Origin: Pyrinomonadaceae bacterium
GTDB lineage: Bacteria; Acidobacteriota; Blastocatellia; Pyrinomonadales; Pyrinomonadaceae
DNA length: 63,491 bases
Assembly: GCA_040081025.1 (NCBI GenBank)
Contig: JBEBGW010000001.1
Location: 1 to 63,491 of the forward strand
Direction: 5' to 3'
In this document: one piece after another, positions 39,488-57,023 of the stretch
Numbering within the stretch: position 1 is the first letter of the stretch
How the letters are laid out: every line of letters begins with the position of its first letter
Notes under the pieces: model-generated
Database searches by the model: none
Seen by the model: only the letters and a program-made list of their open reading frames with translations
What the model was told of the DNA's origin: nothing
Position numbers and translations under genes: made by a program

Positions 39488-40621
39488 TTAGGCGCTGACC
39501 TCCAAGGCACCTTGGGTCGCGGTGCACTGATAGATCGCCGGTACAATGGTCGTCGAACGGGCGTATTCGGCCTCGATCCGAGCGCTGATCTGATGTAGAT
39601 CTGCGTTGCCGTCGCAAATGCTGATCGTACATCCGCCAAAGCCGCCGCCCATCATTCTGGAGCCGAGTATCTCGGGTTGCGATCGGCAGATCTCCGCCAT
39701 GATGTCCAATTCGCGGCAGCTTACTTCGAACTCATCTCGGAGGCTCGCATGAGATTCATTCATCAGCTTGCCAACTGTTGACAAGTCACCGGATCGGAGA
39801 GCTTCGACGGCCGACAGTACGCGAAGATTCTCGGTCACAACGTGCCTTGCGCGTTTCGCGAGCGCTGTTGGCAGGGTGCCGACCTCGTCGATGTCCGCAT
39901 CTCTAAGCGATCTCTTACCAAGACTCGCGGCCGCCGATTCACACTCGGCTCGCCGCGTGTTGTATTCGCTTTCGGCGAGTGAATGCTTGGTTCGCGTGTC
40001 GCAGATGAGAAACGACGCATCACCGAGCGGGATGTGCTGCCATTCAAGCGAGCGGCAGTCTAGAAACAACGTGTGGCCGGCCTTGCCGAGAACCGACGCC
40101 ATCTGGTCCATGATGCCGCTGTTTACTCCGGCAAATTCGTTTTCCGCTGCCTGCCCGATCTTTGCGATCTAGACGTCGGAAAGATCCAGATCGAACAACT
40201 TTGCCAACGCCGTCGCGATCCCGATTTCGAGGGCGGCGGATGAACTTAGCCCGGCTCCCGATGGGATGTCGCTTGTGATCAGAAGATCGGCTCCGCGGAG
40301 CACATGTCCTGCTCGCTGGATCAACGAGAGAACGCCGTACGGATACTTGGTCCAACCTTTCGCGACGGCCTTGCCATCCAGGTCACCCAGACTGACTTCC
40401 AAAATTTCCGCAAAATCGGTCGAGGCAACCGTTAAACGACCGTCATCTCTTGGCGAGGCTGCGACATACACCGCCTTCTCGATCGCAAACGGCATTACGA
40501 AGCCTTCGTTGTAATCTGTGTGCTCGCCGATCAGATTGACGCGTGCGGGAGCGCGGAAGATCCGCGGCTCGCGGCCGAAGCGTTCGATGAAATCTTGTTG
40601 TAATCGGGAGATATCGATCAC
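39488..40621 (-). pseudogene. galK: Galactokinase interrupted by a single in-frame TAG (complement of 40169-40171)
   Basis: ORFs 40169-40621 and 39488-40111 are in the same frame (the 510-nt offset between their 5' ends, 40621 and 40111, is divisible by 3). The read-through translation ...LFDLDLSDV*IAKIGQAAENEFAGVNSGIMDQMASV restores the conserved GalK motif. The GHMP motif PSGAGLSSSAA lies in the N-terminal part. Confidence 0.7.
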
Positions 40622-41661
40622 GTTGAGTAGTGAACCTCGCTCAGACCTCGTAGCCGCTCGGCGGCCTGCTCCGGAGTAAGATCGCGTTGCGGACTGCCGA
40701 GAAGTTCGAAGCCGACGAGGAACTTTCGAATGGTCGCTGATCGCAGCAGCGGCGGATAGAAGTGCGCGTGAAAGTGAGATCCTTCGTGCGGCCTGGCATC
40801 GGTTGGCGACTGGTGAAATCCCATCGAGTAGGGAAACGGTGTTGTAAAGAGGTTGTCGTATCTGGTCGTCACGCGTCGGAGCATATCAGCCATCGAATCG
40901 CGTTCATTGTCGTCGAGTTCAGAGATCGAACCGCTGTGGCGTTTCCCGAGCAGGAGGATCTCGAACGGATACACCGCCCAGAATGGAACGAGTGCCGCGA
41001 AGTCGTCGTTCTCGCAAACTATCCGCTCGCCGCTGCTCAATTCGATCCGCAGATAATCGCAGAGCAGACAGGCACCCGTGCGTAAATGATGCTCGGCCTG
41101 GCGAGCGAGTTCTTTAGCAGGCTCATTCGGTATCGATTCAGTCGCCCAGATCTGACAATGCGGATGCGGGTTGCTCGCGCCCATCATCTCGCCGCGATTC
41201 TCAAATATCTGAACGTGGTCGATGTACGGCATCGACCCGAGCTCGTCGTATTGCCGAGCCCATTCGTCGATGACCTTACGAATGTCAACAACATCCATCC
41301 GAGCGAGGGTCAAACTGTGATCGGACGAAAAGCATACGACGCGGCTCGTACCCCGTTCGCGATGGCTGACGAGCAGGTCGTTGGAATCAGCATCCGTCGT
41401 CTCGTCAGATGTCAGCGCAGCAAAGTCGTTATCGAAAACGAACACCCCGTCGTAATCAGGATTTCGGTGGCCGCCAGCCCGTTCGTTGCCGGGGCATAGA
41501 TAGCATTCGGGATCATATGCAGCGAGTGACGGCACCGCCGAACTCTCAGTCTGTCCTTGCCAGGGCCGTTTTGTACGGTGCGGCGAGACGATCACCCATT
41601 CGCCGGTCAACTGATTGAGCCTGCGATGAGAATGCTCGGTTGGATCGAACTTCACGGTCAT
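40618..41661 (-). CDS. galT: Galactose-1-phosphate uridylyltransferase (HIT type)
   Basis: CYLCPGNERAGG zinc motif and the HPHCQIW active site. It has a 4-nt overlap with galK. Confidence 0.9.
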   Translation of the reverse strand: MTVKFDPTEHSHRRLNQLTGEWVIVSPHRTKRPWQGQTESSAVPSLAAYDPECYLCPGNERAGGHRNPDYDGVFVFDNDFAALTSDETTDADSNDLLVSHRERGTSRVVCFSSDHSLTLARMDVVDIRKVIDEWARQYDELGSMPYIDHVQIFENRGEMMGASNPHPHCQIWATESIPNEPAKELARQAEHHLRTGACLLCDYLRIELSSGERIVCENDDFAALVPFWAVYPFEILLLGKRHSGSISELDDNERDSMADMLRRVTTRYDNLFTTPFPYSMGFHQSPTDARPHEGSHFHAHFYPPLLRSATIRKFLVGFELLGSPQRDLTPEQAAERLRGLSEVHYST

Positions 41662-43310: not shown

Positions 43311-43368
43311 CTGTAAGTATGATGGAAAAAAGAAAGAGTGAGGTCTATGCGCTTTAGTATTCAAACAT
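43311..43368 (-). repeat. Truncated relic of the 5' end of the adjacent 167-aa gene (tandem partial duplication)
   Basis: On the minus strand, ATGTTTGA... directly abuts the TAG of the 43369-43872 gene. 43311-43357 matches 43775-43821 at 42 of 47 positions. The relic lacks ~40 nt present in the intact gene. Confidence 0.6.
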
Positions 43369-43872
43369 CTACGCCGCCTTGCCTTTACCTTTTTCTTTCC
43401 GCCAGAGTTCGTCGTGCAGGCCGAGATGTTCCCGCTCGAAGTCCCTGACCTTATCTAACAGTTCGATGGAGTAGCTTACTGTCGAAAAGAAGCCAACCGT
43501 CGTCCGAAACGCGTCCCGTGCGATCTCGCTGGGCTCGACATCGCCCATCAGTTCTTTGATCTGTTCGTTGCTGATCCGCAGATCGCACGAAACCCATCGC
43601 CACCGAATTTGCGTATCGCGTTTAGTATAATTGCTGATATCTTGTGCACTCATAGGGACACGAGAATACTGCACATGCAACGCTGTCGCAAGCACGCGAA
43701 CACGGAAGTCGGCAAGCCTCGTAAAGTCAAAGAGTTGCCGACGCACGATGGACCAATAGACGCCATCAGCCTTGCTGTAAGGCTGATGGAAAAAAGAAAG
43801 AGCGAGGTCTATGCTTTTTAGCAGGGAGAGTGGTTTCAAGTCTGGGTGCCTATTGCTAAGATGGTCGAACAT
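43369..43872 (-). CDS. Hypothetical protein (167 aa), first gene of the low-GC island
   Basis: An ORF with no motif I recognise and a Lys-rich C-terminus (WRKEKGKGKAA). It is divergent from the DUF262 gene with only a 29-bp spacer. Confidence 0.55.
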   Translation of the reverse strand: MFDHLSNRHPDLKPLSLLKSIDLALSFFHQPYSKADGVYWSIVRRQLFDFTRLADFRVRVLATALHVQYSRVPMSAQDISNYTKRDTQIRWRWVSCDLRISNEQIKELMGDVEPSEIARDAFRTTVGFFSTVSYSIELLDKVRDFEREHLGLHDELWRKEKGKGKAA

Positions 43873-43901: not shown

Positions 43902-44993
43902 ATGAGTGATGACAAGATTAAGGATTTGAACGACGTTGAAACCCGTACTTTCTTAGAGGAAGATGAACCTTCGATTCCACCTTCCGATGTGATTGCGTAT
44001 AACGAGCTCAGATCCTGTGCCGACTTATTCCGTATGTATGTGGATGGAATTCTTGAGATTCAACCTTCGTACCAGCGAGAAGTGGTGTGGAAGAATCCAG
44101 CGCAGACGCGGTTCATTGATTCCTTGATTAAACAGCTACCTATTCCGTCGATGTGCTTTAGCTATGATTACCACCTTCAGAAATGGCAGGTTATAGATGG
44201 ATTGCAGAGGATGACAAGCATAATTAACTTTTTATCTGGCGGAACTGGTAAATTGTCGAAGCTCGACGATATAGACACTCAAATATCTGGGCAGCCGGTA
44301 AAAAAATTCAAGAATCGTGATTCACCTCTCTATAAGTATTACAGACGAGTAGAAAACCTTAGCCTACCGATTAATGTCCTGCGCTGCGATCTCACAAAGG
44401 ACAGCCATACAAGTTACATTTTTTCAATCTTTCATCGTCTAAATTCTGGCGGCACAAAGCTTAACAACCAGGAAATTCGCAACTGCATCTTCAGTGGGCC
44501 GTTCAATGAACTTCTCAACGATCTGAACGGCAATGAGGATTGGCTGAAAATCAACCTGATGGAAAAACCCTACGGCTATCGCTTTGTAAAACAGGAACTG
44601 ATCTTGAGAATGTTCGCTTTCAACGAAGGTCTGAAGTCGTATGACGGGCATCTTGCGAAATTCCTCAATACCTATATGAAACAAAATAGGATGATGAGCG
44701 AAAGCGCATTAGCCTCGAAACGAGCGATGTTCGAATCTGCGGTAAGAATTATCTCCGGCAAAATCCTTGTCCAACCTACCAAGCTCGGTACTTCGGTTTT
44801 GGAAGGATTGCTCGTTGGGGTCGCTTCAAACCTCAAAAATCTCCGAACTAAAAGTTCCAACGAGCTGCAATCACTTTACCGTCAGCTCCTGAAAAGTCCG
44901 GAATACTTACCAACTGCCCTTCTTGAGGGACTTGCTAGGAAGGAGCGCGTGACTAAGCGGCTTCAGAGGGCCCGCACCATTTTCAGCAAGTGA
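43902..44993 (+). CDS. DUF262 (ParB-like/GmrSD N-terminal) domain protein lacking a fused DUF1524 nuclease
   Basis: YQREVVW, IDGLQRMTSI and FHRLNSGGTKLNNQEIRN blocks typical of DUF262. I see no His-Me/HNH-type motif in the C-terminal ~150 aa. Confidence 0.8.
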   Translation: MSDDKIKDLNDVETRTFLEEDEPSIPPSDVIAYNELRSCADLFRMYVDGILEIQPSYQREVVWKNPAQTRFIDSLIKQLPIPSMCFSYDYHLQKWQVIDGLQRMTSIINFLSGGTGKLSKLDDIDTQISGQPVKKFKNRDSPLYKYYRRVENLSLPINVLRCDLTKDSHTSYIFSIFHRLNSGGTKLNNQEIRNCIFSGPFNELLNDLNGNEDWLKINLMEKPYGYRFVKQELILRMFAFNEGLKSYDGHLAKFLNTYMKQNRMMSESALASKRAMFESAVRIISGKILVQPTKLGTSVLEGLLVGVASNLKNLRTKSSNELQSLYRQLLKSPEYLPTALLEGLARKERVTKRLQRARTIFSK

Positions 44994-45502
44994 TGCTTTC
45001 GAACGCCTCGATACTTACAACTTTGATTCACATCGAAGGGCAGTACAACGCTGCTATCGCTCCTATGGACAATTTCTACTCCAAGCTTGCCATTCTCGAG
45101 GCTTGTGGCTGGATAGAGGAAGCAATGGATGATGTTCTCGAGCGGTCAATGAACTACAAGATTAAGAAGTCAAAGGACGTAGATTTCGTCTCAAAAAAGA
45201 TTCTAGAAAACTACGGGTTCGATTATTCGGGTAATTTTAGAAAGGTACTTACCTATATTCTCGGGCTTTGGAATATTGGGAAGATGGAACGTCGACTCGA
45301 TCCATTGAAGTTTGCCCGGCTGGTCTCGCAACTTGGAAATCTAAAGCAGGTAAGGGACTCAGCGGCACACACGCACGTGCAAGTGGGAATCACACAATAT
45401 TACGACGGCCCATCTGTTACGCGACAACGACTACTTCATGTTACTGATGGCTTAGCTGATATTGAGCAGGTGCTCATCAGCATGAAACTCACTAAACTCT
45501 AA
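44993..45502 (+). CDS. Small HEPN-like protein (R-x4-H motif)
   Basis: ATG 44993 overlaps the TGA of the DUF262 gene (TGATG); the track's GTG 44990 is an alternative start. It has a single RDSAAH motif (R codon 45353, H codon 45368) in a helical-looking ~170-aa protein. Confidence 0.55.
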   Translation: MLSNASILTTLIHIEGQYNAAIAPMDNFYSKLAILEACGWIEEAMDDVLERSMNYKIKKSKDVDFVSKKILENYGFDYSGNFRKVLTYILGLWNIGKMERRLDPLKFARLVSQLGNLKQVRDSAAHTHVQVGITQYYDGPSVTRQRLLHVTDGLADIEQVLISMKLTKL

Positions 45503-45601: not shown

Positions 45602-46015
45602 ATGATAGAACCACCTACAAAAAGTCGCAGCTTCAACATGCGTCAAGTTCGATCAAAGCACACGAAGCCAGAACTACTAGTGCGACGAATGCTCTTCGAA
45701 CGCGGCTTTCGATTCCGACTGCACGACAGGCGCCTTCCAGGTAACCCGGATATCGTTTTGCCTAAGTATAGAGCTGTAATCCTTGTTAACGGCTGCTTCT
45801 GGCATCAACATCCGGGATGCAAACGAGCAACCATGCCAGTGCGAAACGCAGATTTTTGGGAAGAAAAGTTAGCAGCGAACACGGCAAGAGACTCTGCTAC
45901 TAGGCGAAGACTCCACGAACTCAATTGGAATGTCCTTGTAGTTTGGGAGTGTGAGGCTTACGGCGATCCAGAAGGCGTTCTAATCCGACTCATTCGCGAA
46001 ATTACCATGGATTGA
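45602..46015 (+). CDS. vsr: Very-short-patch repair endonuclease
   Basis: 137 aa, collinear from memory with E. coli Vsr (RSFNMRQVRSKHTKPE, LPGNPDIVLPKYR.VI.VNGCFWH.H, WNVLVVWECE). Confidence 0.9.
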   Translation: MIEPPTKSRSFNMRQVRSKHTKPELLVRRMLFERGFRFRLHDRRLPGNPDIVLPKYRAVILVNGCFWHQHPGCKRATMPVRNADFWEEKLAANTARDSATRRRLHELNWNVLVVWECEAYGDPEGVLIRLIREITMD

Positions 46016-46031
46016 ACGATGAGTTTTCATT

Positions 46032-47219
46032 ATGACGAATTATTCAGATAAACCATTTACGACCTGGGACGTTGTCGATTTTTTTTCCGGATGCGGTGGC
46101 ATGTCGTACGGCTTTCACACAGTCGGAGAGCAAACCGGCCAATTCCGTATGGTGGCGGCGTTCGATAATGATCGCCATGCAAACGCGACCTATCGGAGAA
46201 ATTTAGGTATTCAACCGTTTGCAACTGATATTGCGAATGCTGAAATCAATGAGATTGAGAGGCTAATGGTTCTTGGCGGGAGGAAGAAACAGAACCCGCT
46301 GATCGTGATCGGATGCGCCCCGTGTCAAGGATTTTCCTCGCATCGGAAAAAGGATCCAAGGAAAGATGGCAGAAACTCTCTCGTCGGTAAGTTTGGTGAG
46401 ATTGCCGTTGGACTCAGGCCCGACGCGATAATCATGGAAAACGTTCCGGACTTACTCGCAAGGAAGCATTGGAGTCATTATCAAAATTTTCTAAATATCC
46501 TAAATGACAATGGTTATAAGATTTCTTCCGGAATCTTGAACTTCGCGGAATTCGGCGTGCCTCAGGAAAGGCATCGGGCTGTGGTTATAGCCGCAAAAGG
46601 TTTCCAGCCATCAATGCCGTCCGGATTTTTAGGGAGGGATGCATTCCGGACCGTTCGCGATGCAATCGGCAGCCTCCCTCCATTGAAAGCAGGTGAAACA
46701 AGCGTCGTGGACGTGATGCATCAAACCTCTAACCACCGGCCCAGTACGCTAGAAATCATTCGGACTGTACCAAAGAATGGTGGCTCACGGCCCGCCGGCG
46801 TTGGACCTGCATGTTTAGACCGAGTTAAAGGCTTTTATGACGTTTACGGCAGGTTACGTTGGGATCGCCCGGCGGTGACAATTACGGCCCGGTGCCGAAC
46901 TCCATCTTGCGGTAGGTTTGTACATCCGGAACAAGATCGTGGTCTGTCGGTTCGCGAAGCTGGGTTACTCCAAGGTTTTCCGTCAGACTTCGAATTTGAA
47001 GGACCATTTGACGATAAGTTTAAACAGGTCGGCAACGCGGTTTCGCCCATCTTTTCAAAAAGGTTGGCTGGTCATGTTCTGGAAATACTTTCTGGCAAAG
47101 GACGTACTGTCGAACAGACTAAACAAACGCTCGAAAGACCAACTTTCAAGTCGTACAGTGGCTCAATAGCCCGTCTTAAGTTAAAGGATCCCGACAAAGT
47201 CGAACTTATTGCCGAATGA
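46032..47219 (+). CDS. DNA (cytosine-5)-methyltransferase, M1
   Basis: m5C motifs I FSGCGGMSYGF, IV GCAPCQGFS, VI ENV, VIII QERHR and X GNAVSP. Confidence 0.9.
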   Translation: MTNYSDKPFTTWDVVDFFSGCGGMSYGFHTVGEQTGQFRMVAAFDNDRHANATYRRNLGIQPFATDIANAEINEIERLMVLGGRKKQNPLIVIGCAPCQGFSSHRKKDPRKDGRNSLVGKFGEIAVGLRPDAIIMENVPDLLARKHWSHYQNFLNILNDNGYKISSGILNFAEFGVPQERHRAVVIAAKGFQPSMPSGFLGRDAFRTVRDAIGSLPPLKAGETSVVDVMHQTSNHRPSTLEIIRTVPKNGGSRPAGVGPACLDRVKGFYDVYGRLRWDRPAVTITARCRTPSCGRFVHPEQDRGLSVREAGLLQGFPSDFEFEGPFDDKFKQVGNAVSPIFSKRLAGHVLEILSGKGRTVEQTKQTLERPTFKSYSGSIARLKLKDPDKVELIAE

Positions 47220-48244
47220 GTCCTCGAATCCTCACTGCAATAGATTGTTTCTCAGGGGCCGGCGGTCTTTCAATTGGATTCGTCGACGCCGGGTTCGATA
47301 TCAGATATGCTTTCGATCTGGATTCCACGAGCATAGACACATACCGCCAGAATATCGGCCCGCACGCAGAAGTTTCTTCAATCTATGACGTTTCAAGGCT
47401 GTCCATGGAGAAATTTCTCGGAGAGACACTAGGCGAAATAGATGTGGTATTCGGTGGGCCACCATGTCAGGGATTTAGCGTTCAGCGTCGTGGATCTGAC
47501 GTAGACAGCCGAAATGACCTTGTAATGGAATTCGCGAGGCTTGTGTTTGATATTCGCCCGCGATTCTTCGTGATGGAAAACGTCGGAGGGCTTCTTGCAC
47601 CAAGGGGAGTGGACGTAATGCGTGAACTCCGAGCGGCATGCGAAAGCCAGGGGTATTACCTGCATATTAAGAAACTGGACGCCTCACTTTACGGTGTCCC
47701 TCAGTTCCGAAAACGAGTTTTTATCGTGGGAGAGCGCTGGGAGAGCGGTCTTTTAAGATTTACCTTTCCAGAGCCTTACGTTAGCAACGGAAATGTCACG
47801 ACGGTGCGCGATGCAATCGAGGACCTTACTGACCGTTCGGAAGGAGATGTCCCGAATCATCGTTCGGACAAATTGTCTCCTATAAATATAGAACGCATTC
47901 GATGGGTAAAAGAAGGACAAGGACGGGATTCTCTTCCGGATCACCTCCAACTTAACTGCCATAGAACAAATTCCCGACACAGACATCTCGATGTCTATGG
48001 TCGGATGTCATGGGATAAACCCGCCCCTACAATCACTGCAAGGTTTGACAGTTTTTCCCGGGGACGGTTTGGTCACCCGGTGCTTGATCGGACCATTACG
48101 CTTCGAGAAGGAGCTCGTTTGCAGACCTTTAAGGATGATTTTATCTTCCAAGGAACGAAGACCGAGGTAGCAAAGCAGATCGGTAATGCTGTCCCTCCAA
48201 TTTTGGCTCGGGCCTTAGCTGAACGGATCAAAAACTGTATTTAG
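47216..48244 (+). CDS. DNA (cytosine-5)-methyltransferase, M2
   Basis: m5C motifs FSGAGGLSIGF, GGPPCQGFS, ENV, QFRKR and GNAVPP. It has a 4-nt overlap (ATGA) with M1. Confidence 0.9.
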   Translation: MSPRILTAIDCFSGAGGLSIGFVDAGFDIRYAFDLDSTSIDTYRQNIGPHAEVSSIYDVSRLSMEKFLGETLGEIDVVFGGPPCQGFSVQRRGSDVDSRNDLVMEFARLVFDIRPRFFVMENVGGLLAPRGVDVMRELRAACESQGYYLHIKKLDASLYGVPQFRKRVFIVGERWESGLLRFTFPEPYVSNGNVTTVRDAIEDLTDRSEGDVPNHRSDKLSPINIERIRWVKEGQGRDSLPDHLQLNCHRTNSRHRHLDVYGRMSWDKPAPTITARFDSFSRGRFGHPVLDRTITLREGARLQTFKDDFIFQGTKTEVAKQIGNAVPPILARALAERIKNCI

Positions 48245-48246
48245 GT

Positions 48247-50409
48247 ATGGAACAAGAAATTGATGACATTGGCTCAGTCGAAGATGGGACGTTCGGTGAG
48301 GGCAGCAGCACGGGCAACCCGCTGAATAGTTGGCCGAGCGGAACCCGGGATGTTACAGAGTTTCCTACCTTCGTGTTCGATGGGACTTCGACGAACGTGG
48401 AACTAGTTTCACCGAAAGCTCACCTTAAAGCCTTTCTTGCTCTCGATGGCGTCGACGCAACAGACTATCCGCGCCAGCTGTCAGGAGGTGGCCTAGGCAA
48501 TTCTGATCAGCGAGCGAGGTCCTACCGAAAATTGTATGAACGTCTCGGTCTTATCTTTCGCGACGGCGAAAAAATTCGCCTATCTGAAATAGGACTCGGA
48601 CTTCGGGACTTTCCAGCCACTCTACCGGAGACTCTTGAAAATTATGCGGAGGGCGAAAAGCAAAGGTTCGTTCAGAACTTCCGCTCCAAAGCTATCCGGA
48701 TTCTCGCGAAAGATCAGCTCGATAATCCGACGGAGATACAGCGACATAGATTACCTCCAGGCTGCGATGTCTTCCCTTTCAGATGCATCTGGCAAGCAAT
48801 GTTGGAGTTGGATAATAAGCTTCACTATGAAGAGGTAAATCGTTGTCTACTTTATGTAATGAAAATGGCCGACCTTCCAGCGGCAATCGATCGAATTAGA
48901 ACTGCAAGAAACCAGACTGAGTCGTACGCCGAAGCGAGTACCGATGAACTGAGTGAATCGCTGGGGCTTCCAGTATTTGAGGATCAAGCATCCGCTCGAG
49001 TGTCTTCGTGGTTTAGTCTGGCGGGCTGGGGAGGCCTGATCATCGAGCAAGGAAACCAAACTGATGGTTTCCGACATTTAGTGCCAGAGGCAATCCCTTT
49101 GATTCGTGACGAGCTGTCAAAGCCACCTACGTTTTATTCGGCGCAGGACGAAGTGGACTGGTTTGATCATTACCTTAGGACTGTTATTCCGCGGGACACG
49201 ATGGACGCCACGCCGTCGGAATTTATCGAAGCTTTCAAAACGGATCTTCTGGTCGCGGGACTGCAATTCGATGAGGAAACAACAAACCGGTTTGTTGCAA
49301 GCTGCCAGACGAAGGCGTTTGTAATCCTCACCGGCTTGTCCGGAGCGGGCAAAACGAAACTAGCTCAAGCATTTGCTCGATGGCTTTCACCAAGGGATGG
49401 CTCACCTCGCTACGAAATTATCGCGGTAGGGCCAGACTGGACGAGCAAGGATTACGTTTTGGGTTACCCAGACGCGCTAGACTCGACAAAGTATGTCCGC
49501 ACGCAAGTATTGAACATGATTCTGCGGGCGGCAGGAGAGAGCCGATCCCCGTTCGTACTCGTTTTCGACGAGATGAATCTGTCGCACGTAGAACGCTATT
49601 TCGCCGATATTCTTTCCAGCCTTGAGTCGAACGAAGCGATCTGTCTGCACAACGATTTGACTGATCGCGACGGTATTCCTGCCCGGATTAGCTCCCTTCC
49701 TCCCAACCTGTTCATTATTGGGACGGTGAATGTTGACGACACAACCTACATGTTTTCGCCTAAAGTTCTCGACCGCGCAAATGTTATCGAGTTCAGGGTT
49801 GATTCTTCATCGATGCGAAGTTTTCTTGATGGATCGAGTTCAGTCAGTCTTGAAAATCTTGATGGGAAAGGTGCCATTTATGCCCGAAGCTTTGTCGAAA
49901 GTTGTAAAAAAATTCCCTCGCTCGAAGACGAAGAAATATCGATTGTAACTGAGGAAATAATGCTAGTGTTCCGAATTCTCGAGTACTTCGGCTATGAGTT
50001 CGGATACAGGACCGCCTCTGAAATGAAGAACTTTATTGCGTTTCACAAAGCGCTCACGCCGACCACTTGGCGGATATCGGCGGCCATCGATGCTCAGGTC
50101 TTCCAAAAGGTTTTGCCGAAATTACACGGATCAAGACGAAAGATCGAGCCGCTCCTAACTAGCTTGGCAATCGCGTGTCATTCGAGCCGAAAGTGGGCCG
50201 ATGATGCAGCTGGCTTTTTGAGCGATGAGGTCTTTCAAAAGGCTATTGGCGCCGATTCGTCATCGCATCCAAGTGACCCTCTTGAAACCGATGAAAAAGG
50301 TAGACTTCTTATGTCTTATCAGACAGCGATTTATCCGCTGAGTCTCGCAAAATTGCAGCGAATGTTACGCGGTTTAGAAGATGGTTTTACAAGCTTTGCT
50401 GAGGCTTAA
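48247..50409 (+). CDS. McrB-like AAA+ (GTPase-type) restriction subunit with an uncharacterised ~330-aa N-terminal domain (R1)
   Basis: Walker A GLSGAGKTK, the McrB-type Walker B block FVLVFDEMNLSHVERYFADILSSLE, and IIGTVNVDD...LDRANVIEF. Confidence 0.8.
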   Translation: MEQEIDDIGSVEDGTFGEGSSTGNPLNSWPSGTRDVTEFPTFVFDGTSTNVELVSPKAHLKAFLALDGVDATDYPRQLSGGGLGNSDQRARSYRKLYERLGLIFRDGEKIRLSEIGLGLRDFPATLPETLENYAEGEKQRFVQNFRSKAIRILAKDQLDNPTEIQRHRLPPGCDVFPFRCIWQAMLELDNKLHYEEVNRCLLYVMKMADLPAAIDRIRTARNQTESYAEASTDELSESLGLPVFEDQASARVSSWFSLAGWGGLIIEQGNQTDGFRHLVPEAIPLIRDELSKPPTFYSAQDEVDWFDHYLRTVIPRDTMDATPSEFIEAFKTDLLVAGLQFDEETTNRFVASCQTKAFVILTGLSGAGKTKLAQAFARWLSPRDGSPRYEIIAVGPDWTSKDYVLGYPDALDSTKYVRTQVLNMILRAAGESRSPFVLVFDEMNLSHVERYFADILSSLESNEAICLHNDLTDRDGIPARISSLPPNLFIIGTVNVDDTTYMFSPKVLDRANVIEFRVDSSSMRSFLDGSSSVSLENLDGKGAIYARSFVESCKKIPSLEDEEISIVTEEIMLVFRILEYFGYEFGYRTASEMKNFIAFHKALTPTTWRISAAIDAQVFQKVLPKLHGSRRKIEPLLTSLAIACHSSRKWADDAAGFLSDEVFQKAIGADSSSHPSDPLETDEKGRLLMSYQTAIYPLSLAKLQRMLRGLEDGFTSFAEA

Positions 50410-52267
50410 TTCTGTGGAGGAATCAACTTTAGACTTTCGCGACCGTGACGATCGAACGATCTGCAAGGTAAGGCTTGTTGCAGAGAAGAGCGGCACGCTA
50501 CGGAATATTACTAGAGAAGAAGCGATTGAGTTTTCCGAAGAAACCGTTCAATTGCTGGAGAATGCTTCATACGAATATCAGGTCAATGACCCGGATTTCG
50601 AACTCATGGAATCAGCGGCGATTACAAGAAGTAAACTTGCGGTCGGCGGGCTAGACAGTGGACGTGTCTCCCCCGAGAGCTTCACGGGCATATTACCGCT
50701 TGGAGTGGCTCGGAAAACCGATTCACTCAGAATGATTGCAACTGCTGCGGTTGAGGTTCGCTCACGAAAGCTCAGTTACCGAAAGGACTATCGACATATG
50801 CTGGACGCAATTGCATCCAGGTGCTCTAATTTGCTTCTGGATTTAGCCGCCCCAACCCAGGCGCGATTCTCCCCTGATCCGAATAGATTCCAGGAGGAAC
50901 TTGCTCAACGGTTCGCCTTCATCTCTTCGGTGCTTCATTCAAAGGAATTTCACGACTCGATTGGTAGGGTGATCAGTCGACCTTTCCGACGAGCAACGAC
51001 GACGCACGTCGAACGACGGACCTCCCGAGGCTTTAGGCCATCCAACTCAATACTTCGTCAAATTCCTTCAAAACTTCCTAGAGTTAAAGTTCCCGAACGT
51101 CATCCGCTAAACAATTTACTCTCGAATCCACATTGTTCGGGACCTACCATTCCGGGGAAACTTACAGTTTCAGAATATTCGGAGACGATCGACAATCCTG
51201 AGAATCGATTCATTAAGCACAGTTTACTCGTCTACAGCGATTATCTTTCGAAGGTTGCCCATATAGCGGCGCAGACAAAGCCAGTCGAAAGGTATCGGCG
51301 ACTACGAGGAGAAGTTGCAGAGCTAGCGCGAGAAATCGAAGCAATCCTCGCAGACAATCTTTTCAAGGAGATTTCGAGACCTACTGCCTATTCGTTGGCT
51401 AGTCCGGTGCTGCAAAAAAGGGCTGGTTACCGCGAATTGGTGCAGGTATGGGTCAAGTTCAACCTTGCCTCTCTCCTAACTTGGAAGGGAGGCGAGGACG
51501 TATATGGGTCGGGTAAGCGGAATATGGATGTACTCTATGAGTATTGGCTATTCTTCGAATTACTCGAGATCATCAGTCAGGTCTTTTCACTTCCTAAAGT
51601 CGAATATCGCGAGCTATTCCATATCGAACCGAGCGGTTTCGGGGTTCGTTTGAAATCGGGCAGTAACCTAGTAATCAATAAAGTCACGTCCGTCTACGAT
51701 ACAAATCTCCGCGTTGTTTTTAGTTACAACCGGACATTCAGTCCATCACCGGCATACTCGCGGGAAGGATCTTGGACTCTCCCAATGAGGCCAGATTTCA
51801 CGCTGAGCGTATATCCAGCTGAGCTTTCTGCGGAGCAAGCAGAGTTTGATGAAAAGATTGTGCATCTACATTTCGACTCTAAATACAAGGCTGATCATAT
51901 CGAGGACGTTTTTGAAATTGTCGACAGTCCCGACTCGGTCGATGCTGGAGCGAGAATTCGGAATAGAGCCCGGGCTAAAAATACAGACTTTTTAAAGATG
52001 CATTCGTATCGTGATGCCATCAAACGCTCCTATGGTGCTTATGTACTCTTCCCTGGCACCGACAATCGAAGGTGGCAGACCTTTGGAGAGATTCTCCCTG
52101 GCCTGGGTGCGTTTGCAATGCGCCCTAGCGAAGGGGGCGCGGCTCAAGGCTCTGAGAAGCTTAGGGAATTTCTTGACGATTTAGTAGTTCATCTTTGCGA
52201 GCGCAGTACTAAGCGGTCGTTGCTAGCTCAACACGTCTTTCAGACCTATACCGACGAGCAATCCTAG
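50381..52267 (+). CDS. McrC-like PD-(D/E)xK nuclease subunit (R2)
   Basis: C-terminal RPDFTL ... LHFDSKYK ... YRDAI motif, equivalent to the McrC D...D-x-K-Y-K core. GTG 50414, preceded by GAGG, is an alternative start that removes the overlap with R1. Confidence 0.7.
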   Translation: MVLQALLRLNSVEESTLDFRDRDDRTICKVRLVAEKSGTLRNITREEAIEFSEETVQLLENASYEYQVNDPDFELMESAAITRSKLAVGGLDSGRVSPESFTGILPLGVARKTDSLRMIATAAVEVRSRKLSYRKDYRHMLDAIASRCSNLLLDLAAPTQARFSPDPNRFQEELAQRFAFISSVLHSKEFHDSIGRVISRPFRRATTTHVERRTSRGFRPSNSILRQIPSKLPRVKVPERHPLNNLLSNPHCSGPTIPGKLTVSEYSETIDNPENRFIKHSLLVYSDYLSKVAHIAAQTKPVERYRRLRGEVAELAREIEAILADNLFKEISRPTAYSLASPVLQKRAGYRELVQVWVKFNLASLLTWKGGEDVYGSGKRNMDVLYEYWLFFELLEIISQVFSLPKVEYRELFHIEPSGFGVRLKSGSNLVINKVTSVYDTNLRVVFSYNRTFSPSPAYSREGSWTLPMRPDFTLSVYPAELSAEQAEFDEKIVHLHFDSKYKADHIEDVFEIVDSPDSVDAGARIRNRARAKNTDFLKMHSYRDAIKRSYGAYVLFPGTDNRRWQTFGEILPGLGAFAMRPSEGGAAQGSEKLREFLDDLVVHLCERSTKRSLLAQHVFQTYTDEQS

Positions 52268-55988: not shown

Positions 55989-57019
<1,031 letters not shown>

Positions 57020-57023
<4 letters not shown>

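Follow-up and report, generated by a model that had tools for sequence, protein, structure and literature searches.

Which system is encoded by the two overlapping genes at positions 43,902–45,502 of contig JBEBGW010000001.1 of a Pyrinomonadaceae bacterium (assembly GCA_040081025.1), and how might its two products act together? We addressed this within the stretch of 63,491 nucleotides (nt) in which the pair lies, hereafter the window. The first gene encodes a DUF262 protein of 363 amino acids (aa), here called A, and the second a smaller protein, B, with an R-x4-H motif of the HEPN type. An earlier note, made from the sequence alone, had taken the pair for a candidate uncharacterised defence system. 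That claim does not survive: the window pair is almost certainly a divergent copy of PD-T4-2, a two-gene anti-phage system validated against phage T4 (Vassallo et al., 2022; PMC9519451).

Assignment of the pair to PD-T4-2

We identify the pair as PD-T4-2 because both proteins match PADLOC models over their full length and align end to end with an E. coli pair, and because the published system is listed as 'DUF262, HEPN'. Residues 3–362 of A aligned with positions 3–362 of the 363 in the PADLOC profile PD-T4-2_A (PDLC04027; E = 3.1e-149, 495 bits), and residues 1–164 of B with positions 1–166 of the 168 in PD-T4-2_B (PDLC04028; E = 3.3e-46). The E. coli pair, which we reached by way of an Erwinia locus used as a bridge, has the same two profiles as its top PADLOC models (E = 2.3e-162 and 7.9e-64). 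Its first protein is 53% identical to A (E = 4e-136) and its second, named 'HEPN domain-containing protein', is 34% identical to B (E = 6e-34); this E. coli copy may differ from the ECOR65 clone, as RCO39066.1 is not among the E. coli cluster accessions listed. In the window, as in E. coli, A comes first and B adjoins it on the same strand.

PD-T4-2 is already a known system: it is contained in PADLOC, named in reviews, annotated in RefSeq as DUF262 plus HEPN, and experimentally validated in E. coli. It was obtained by functional selection from E. coli ECOR65 and stands in Table S1 of that study as 'DUF262, HEPN'; Table S2 places it on the ECOR65 contig QOYX01000002, with RCO39066.1 as the first coding sequence and the second unannotated (PMC9519451). 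When cloned it protects K-12 against T4, the two genes being sufficient, and its deletion from the native strain restores T4 plaquing; the 10 systems selected with T4, PD-T4-2 included, are generally also protective against T2 and T6. HHpred assignments in the same study were DUF262 (99.7%) and DndB (96.7%) for A, and HEPN_RiboL-PSP (97.8%) and HEPN_MAE_28990 (96.9%) for B. Two reviews group PD-T4-2 with the DUF262 systems that lack DUF1524 (PMC10952713; PMC12065111), 'largely uncharacterized' in the words of one of them, and a 2026 preprint (DARNA) cites it merely as an example of a HEPN-containing system. The further statement of the earlier note, that no mechanism or phenotype had been described for such a pair, therefore fails for the phenotype, given the protection against T4, and stands for the mechanism, on which we found no paper in the literature searched. 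Phage protection has been demonstrated for the E. coli system alone, and the window copy is a predicted defence pair.

The window copy shares with PD-T4-2 of ECOR65 the order of the genes, the lengths of the products (∼363 and 167–169 aa), a DUF262 domain without DUF1524, a HEPN protein of the RiboL-PSP type and the conserved motifs. It differs in its sequence divergence, in its non-enterobacterial host of ∼56% guanine plus cytosine (GC) and in its setting, a chromosomal island beside a LlaJI-type restriction–modification (R-M) module, whereas the E. coli copy occupies a mobile defence hotspot. In E. coli 2009C-3133 (L081; NZ_CP013025.1, 3553868–3555503) that hotspot is a P4-like satellite, with psu/ogr-delta on one side of the pair and an integrase at ssrA on the other. 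The pair is present in 17 of 5,426 complete E. coli genomes, where RefSeq labels it 'DUF262 domain-containing protein | HEPN domain-containing protein'.

Other described systems fit less well. The second-best PADLOC model for A was NsnA of Menshen, which also matched over its full length, at 183 bits (E = 2.9e-54) against the 495 bits of PD-T4-2_A. A resembles NsnA in joining DUF262 to a helical 'ParBDB' domain, and Menshen effectors are likewise predicted RNases (PMC12065111). The window pair, however, lacks both the NsnB ABC-ATPase and NsnC (inPIN plus effector): its putative effector is a standalone HEPN protein, A is followed by this protein and then by Vsr, and B has no ABC-ATPase match. 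Neither A nor B matched a Dazbog profile among PADLOC hits at E ≤ 0.1. The partner gene of B is a DUF262 gene, unlike that of HEPN-MNT toxin–antitoxin pairs, and no nucleotidyltransferase family of Pfam matched A. Two characterised candidates were also set aside. WonAB of Vibrio cholerae, considered because a V. cholerae homologue of B is named 'endoribonuclease', consists of an ABC-ATPase and a PD-(D/E)xK nuclease and is unrelated; GrwAB, a DUF262-DUF1524 protein with a DUF262 protein, is unrelated as well.

Conservation and predicted folds of the two proteins

A has the DUF262 domain that the earlier note had ascribed to it: residues 41–197 matched Pfam GmrSD_N/DUF262 (PF03235) with E = 6.8e-26 and a score of 92 bits (cut-off 33.2). 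The three motifs of the family, QR...W, DGxQR and FxxxN (defined in PMC12065111; DGxQR also in PMC10952713), are all present. Among 22 homologues of A, Q58 and R59 are kept in at least 90%, and E60, V62, W63, D99-G-L-Q-R103 and F177-H-R-L-N181 are invariant. The peptides that had been quoted, YQREVVW (aa 57–63), IDGLQRMTSI (aa 98–107) and FHRLNSGGTKLN (aa 177–188) in A and VRDSAAHTH (aa 120–128) in B, occur as described and far beyond chance.

The absence from A of a fused His-Me or other nuclease, also noted earlier, was borne out in three ways. No Pfam match of A to DUF1524 or any other nuclease family was found at E ≤ 0.1. The AlphaFold2 model (mean predicted local distance difference test score, pLDDT, 76.6) has an alpha/beta ParB-like core at residues ∼30–200, followed by helices only, with no strands, from 200 to 363. 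In a Foldseek search of the PDB with this model, BrxU (7p9k) came first with a probability of 1.0, ahead of ParB, Noc, KorB and DndB, and there was no nuclease fold among the PDB matches. A C-terminal nuclease fold in A, which the earlier note had named as evidence against its reading, is therefore not seen. A sequence search of the PDB with profiles of A and B gave nothing beyond a marginal match to BrxU (E = 0.61). Like GmrSD, BrxU and SspE, A has at its N terminus a DUF262 domain with the QR, DGxQR and FxxxN motifs and behind it a helical domain; its best structural match is BrxU, and activity on T-even phages is common to GmrSD and PD-T4-2. It differs from these enzymes in having no C-terminal DUF1524 His-Me (beta-beta-alpha) nuclease; the putative effector is instead a separate HEPN protein, with RNA and not DNA as its predicted target.

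Relatives of A numbered 2,975 at E ≤ 1e-10, the nearest in that search being ∼55–60% identical and ∼362 aa long. In PHROGs, A falls into phrog_2598, a family with no assigned function, and B has no match. Two homologues of 467 aa (P0048 and P0092) carry an additional N-terminal domain of ∼105 aa before the DUF262 core, recalling the 'type II' NsnA proteins of Menshen with their added sensor domains (PMC12065111). This extra domain is not B. Natural A–B fusions were looked for and the idea rejected, almost all of the top 150 representatives of B being standalone.

That B belongs to a HEPN family, with a near-invariant R-x4-H motif, is supported by profile and conservation evidence. When 42 members of the B family were searched individually, 23 matched HEPN_RiboL-PSP (PF18735; best E = 5.2e-09), and no other family recurred; the E. 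coli orthologue clears the Pfam cut-off (31.4 against 28.4 bits). A profile search for B among 1.84 billion proteins gave 671 representatives after clustering at 50% identity, and in almost all of the top 150 B is a standalone protein of 160–173 aa. The two motif residues persist almost throughout, R121 in 149 of 150 representatives and H126 in 148 of 149, as the HEPN-type motif proposed earlier would have it. In 139 of 150, R121 is followed by N or D at position 122, in keeping with the polar residue that comes next to R in the R-x4-6-H motif of the HEPN superfamily. The 71 homologues of B derived from synteny have R121 and H126 without exception, and K31, E36, W40, E42, G91 and P140 are also near-invariant. 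The model of B (pLDDT 87.9) is an all-alpha bundle of seven helices without strands. A tblastn search of phage and plasmid collections with B gave no match.

The family has a precedent in comparative genomics. Anantharaman et al. (2013) covered the Ribo L-PSP-HEPN and MAE_28990 HEPN families, both listed as 'operon with ParB', the former in their Table 1 as 'Ribo L-PSP-HEPN ... operon with ParB', which agrees with the earlier remark that HEPN families had been seen next to DUF262 genes. The B family belongs with these, through its matches to PF18735 and, in the HHpred results of Vassallo et al. (2022), to PF18737. The 2013 census differs from the present case in being purely computational, with no defence or mechanism assigned specifically to this pair.

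The two genes are conserved as neighbours. We collected 80 loci with relatives of A (L001–L080) from GTDB species representatives, of which 79 were usable, and called a homologue of B by phmmer at E < 1e-3. Such a homologue lies directly downstream of A in 78 of the 79 loci, at E < 1e-10 in 77 of these; it starts ∼−35 to +12 nt from the stop of A and is mostly 165–170 aa long. The exception is a Caldilineaceae metagenome-assembled genome (L045, 1914–2390), in which the open reading frame (ORF) after A (126 aa, after a gap of 95 nt) has no match; this may be a case of loss or decay of B. The loci come from Chloroflexota, Acidobacteriota, Cyanobacteriota, Nitrospirota, Pseudomonadota, Bacteroidota and other groups. 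The nearest relative of A (68% identity) has the same A–B arrangement. The pairing is thus one of strict linkage across many phyla.

Across phyla, identity to the window proteins is 46–60% for A and 28–44% for B. A word-seeded search for relatives of B found three, B diverging much faster than A. Conservation of A far above that of B is the reverse of the common expectation for sensors and effectors.

Layout and surroundings of the pair

Both ORFs and their TGATG overlap are as the earlier note had given them (Table 1). B can be read from the ATG within the overlap, which gives 169 aa, or from an in-frame GTG at 44990, which gives 170 aa; we favour the ATG because homologues begin with M-[IV]-x-K. 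On sequence grounds the overlap of the stop of A with the start of B is one of predicted translational coupling. A promoter scan found no sigma-70-like promoter, and a terminator scan gave a single candidate site downstream of B, no more than chance would give.

Table 1. Positions in the window of the PD-T4-2 pair, its motifs and the adjoining R-M genes.
Feature	Position	Strand	Basis
PD-T4-2 component A, 363 aa, ATG start: DUF262/ParB-like predicted NTPase domain (∼aa 30–200) and all-helical C-terminal domain (∼aa 200–363), no nuclease domain	43902–44993	+	Window ORF list, Pfam, PADLOC, E. coli homologue, AlphaFold2, Foldseek
DUF262 motif I (QR...W), Y57-Q-R-E-V-V-W63	44070–44090	+	Sequence; conservation in 22 homologues
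DUF262 motif II (DGxQR, predicted NTP-binding centre), D99-G-L-Q-R103	44196–44210	+	Invariant in 22 homologues
DUF262 motif III (FxxxN), F177-H-R-L-N181	44430–44444	+	Invariant in 22 homologues
TGATG, TGA of A overlapping ATG of B	44991–44995	+	Sequence
PD-T4-2 component B, 169 aa: standalone all-helical HEPN-family protein, predicted RNase effector	44993–45502	+	PADLOC, E. coli homologue, model, Pfam matches of the family
HEPN R-x4-H motif, R121-D-S-A-A-H126 (family consensus R-[N/D]-x-x-A-H-T)	45353–45370	+	Conservation
Vsr	45602–46015	+	Profile match
C5 cytosine methyltransferase 1	46032–47219	+	Profile match
C5 cytosine methyltransferase 2	47216–48244	+	Profile match
McrB-like AAA+ protein, 720 aa, unique N-terminal half	48247–50409	+	PADLOC PDC-M26A, E = 2.4e-46
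McrC-like protein, 628 aa, DUF2357 and PD-(D/E)xK	50381–52267	+	Profile match

The pair occupies the left end of an island (∼43.3–52.5 kb) whose GC fraction is low, at 0.45–0.50 against ∼0.56 elsewhere in the window and ∼0.55–0.58 in the flanks. The rest of the island is largely taken up by five genes that form a complete LlaJI-type R-M module with Vsr, separate from the A–B pair; the four-gene architecture of the LlaJI system (PMC1459862) equals the window module minus Vsr. The composition of the island, which holds both defence modules, suggests horizontal acquisition, and a defence-island context for the pair is supported by the adjoining module together with the low GC. No tRNA gene, integrase or direct repeat spanning the island was found in the window.

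A minus-strand ORF of 167 aa (43369–43872), divergent from the pair, marks the left edge of the island. Searches of Pfam, NCBIfam, PADLOC and PHROGs gave it no credible match (in NCBIfam one at chance level, E = 0.08), and none of the 80 related loci has a homologue; the ORF may be an orphan of the island or no gene at all. A direct repeat of 47 nt (43311–43357 and 43775–43821; 89% identical, 464 nt apart) has one copy just beyond the stop end of this ORF and the second within the first part of the coding sequence, and the similarity ends at 47 nt. Galactose-1-phosphate uridylyltransferase-like ORFs flank the island at 40618–41661 (−) and 55989–57023 (+), and a galactokinase-like gene lies at ∼39488–40621, as judged by eye from the translations.

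Elsewhere, too, the pair is found beside R-M genes. A type II cassette of the NaeI family, comprising a C5 methyltransferase and a NaeI-like endonuclease, adjoins it in eight mostly alphaproteobacterial loci (L043, L049, L054, L060, L064, L070, L076 and L080), with Vsr as part of the cassette in the first four; in L062 and L079 an HNH endonuclease and a methyltransferase take its place. PD-T4-2 with a NaeI-family cassette looks like a recurrent two-system island. Dcm and Vsr were considered as functional partners of the pair and rejected, as they belong to independent R-M cassettes of variable position and orientation.

How the two proteins might act together

We lean towards a mechanism in which A is a nucleoside triphosphate (NTP)-dependent DNA sensor or switch that controls, or licenses, the predicted HEPN RNase B, and we consider this the probable arrangement. 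It is modelled on GmrSD, BrxU, SspE and Menshen (PMC10952713; PMC12065111), DUF262 being an NTP-dependent sensor of DNA or its modification in the first three. A would be a DUF262 NTPase of the ParB/Srx fold joined to an all-helical DNA-binding domain like those of Menshen NsnA, GmrSD, SspE and DndB, and as sensor or switch it would recognise some feature of invading phage DNA; the phage targeted by the E. coli system is T4, whose DNA contains glucosyl-hydroxymethylcytosine. Binding and hydrolysis of NTP by A would then release or activate B. As a minimal HEPN domain, B probably dimerises to give a composite R-x4-H active site and would cleave RNA, stopping phage gene expression. The two proteins, with their predicted translational coupling, probably form a complex. 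The analysis itself shows to which family the pair belongs, its domains, the lack of a nuclease in A, the conserved NTPase and R-x4-H motifs and the strict co-occurrence of the two genes; from the analogues we infer the feature sensed by A, the action of B as an RNase, the RNA that it would cut and whether the cell would survive.

We assign the role of sensor to A because of its invariant motifs, its ParB-like core with a helical half, the fold matches to BrxU, ParB and DndB, the match to NsnA, and the published roles of DUF262. B is assigned the role of effector because R121 and H126 are near-invariant, the family matches PF18735, the E. coli orthologue lies above the cut-off and the model is all-alpha; its RNase activity is predicted from these features. 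That the two would be coupled follows from their linkage in all but one of the usable loci, from the overlap of stop and start, and from B being nearly always a standalone protein. A more specific form of the proposal, which we offer tentatively and regard as somewhat doubtful, is that PD-T4-2, including the window copy, could be a 'type IV restriction-like' sensor, in which the DUF262/ParB NTP switch would read the chemistry of phage DNA, for example hypermodified cytosine, and license the HEPN RNase in trans. In essence this is the mechanism suggested in the earlier note, and none of our results contradicts it.

Several points weigh against a sensor of this kind acting through a HEPN effector. 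A is the better conserved of the two proteins, which would be unusual were it the fast-evolving sensor, and which fits a sensor–effector model poorly. The window B itself matched Pfam HEPN_RiboL-PSP with E = 0.014 and 15.7 bits, under the cut-off of 28.4, and the earlier view of R-x4-H as its sole recognisable feature was a fair one for that reason. Foldseek found no significant match of the B model in the PDB: the highest TM-score (0.43/0.50) belonged to the HEPN protein HI0074 (1jog), and the HEPN chains of Csx1 (Csx1-Crn2) were just weak matches. The fold of B in the model is thus compatible with HEPN and no proof of it, the sequence-profile evidence being the stronger. We found no paper on the biochemistry or structure of PD-T4-2, and the steps proposed above are all taken by analogy. 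Finally, the window host is not E. coli, and what holds for T4 may not hold for its own phages and their DNA modifications.

The conservation of A above B would sit more easily with a toxin–antitoxin or 'guard' arrangement, in which B would be a HEPN RNase with constitutive toxicity, kept in check by stoichiometric binding of A. Removal or depletion of A, through a phage protein or host shut-off, would free B and lead to abortive infection, without any reading of DNA modification by A. Tight translational coupling and strict co-occurrence are typical of toxin–antitoxin pairs, and HEPN toxins under the control of protein partners, such as PrrC and HepT/MNT, are well known (cited in the DARNA preprint). 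A passive antitoxin, however, would have no need of invariant NTPase motifs; A retains the architecture of known DNA sensors, in which DUF262 is joined to a helical DNA-binding domain, and the partner of B is not a nucleotidyltransferase of the MNT type. We consider this arrangement unlikely. We give still less weight to the converse division of labour, with A cutting or nicking phage DNA as a ParB-like enzyme and B as a HEPN accessory that binds RNA or regulates, which would amount to DNA-targeting type IV-like restriction. Anantharaman et al. (2013) do treat ParB-like domains in such operons as DNases ('operon with a ParB nuclease'), A has a weak PADLOC match to a type II restriction endonuclease model (E = 3.6e-11), and the system targets T-even phages, as does GmrSD (PMC9519451; PMC10952713). 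Characterised DUF262 proteins, by contrast, use the ParB-like domain as NTPase or sensor and leave cutting to DUF1524; the model of A has no nuclease fold, and the near-invariant catalytic R and H of B argue that B is an enzyme.

A different kind of alternative is that the pair forms one larger system with the adjoining Vsr, the two C5 methyltransferases and the McrB-like and McrC-like proteins, in which self DNA would be marked for A by the methyltransferases. All these genes are neighbours on a common strand within a single low-GC island, and a C5 methyltransferase is nearby in 11 of the 80 other PD-T4-2 loci. Yet the neighbours make up a complete LlaJI-type module by themselves; each methyltransferase found elsewhere has its own NaeI-family or HNH endonuclease and lies on either side of the pair in either orientation, and ∼69 of the 80 loci have no such methyltransferase. 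The McrB-like and McrC-like genes of the window have no homologue in any of those loci, and the E. coli system is functional as a two-gene clone. A single larger system is, in our estimate, very improbable.

We return, then, to A as the sensor or switch that would control the RNase B. As a discovery the locus matters little, the system being already catalogued and validated. What the analysis adds is the distribution of PD-T4-2 across many phyla with strict A–B linkage, and a set of near-invariant targets for mutagenesis: Q58/R59, D99–R103 and F177–N181 in A, and K31, E36, W40, E42, R121 and H126 in B. If A does read the chemistry of phage DNA to license B, PD-T4-2 would couple recognition of DNA modification to translational shut-down, and not to DNA cutting.

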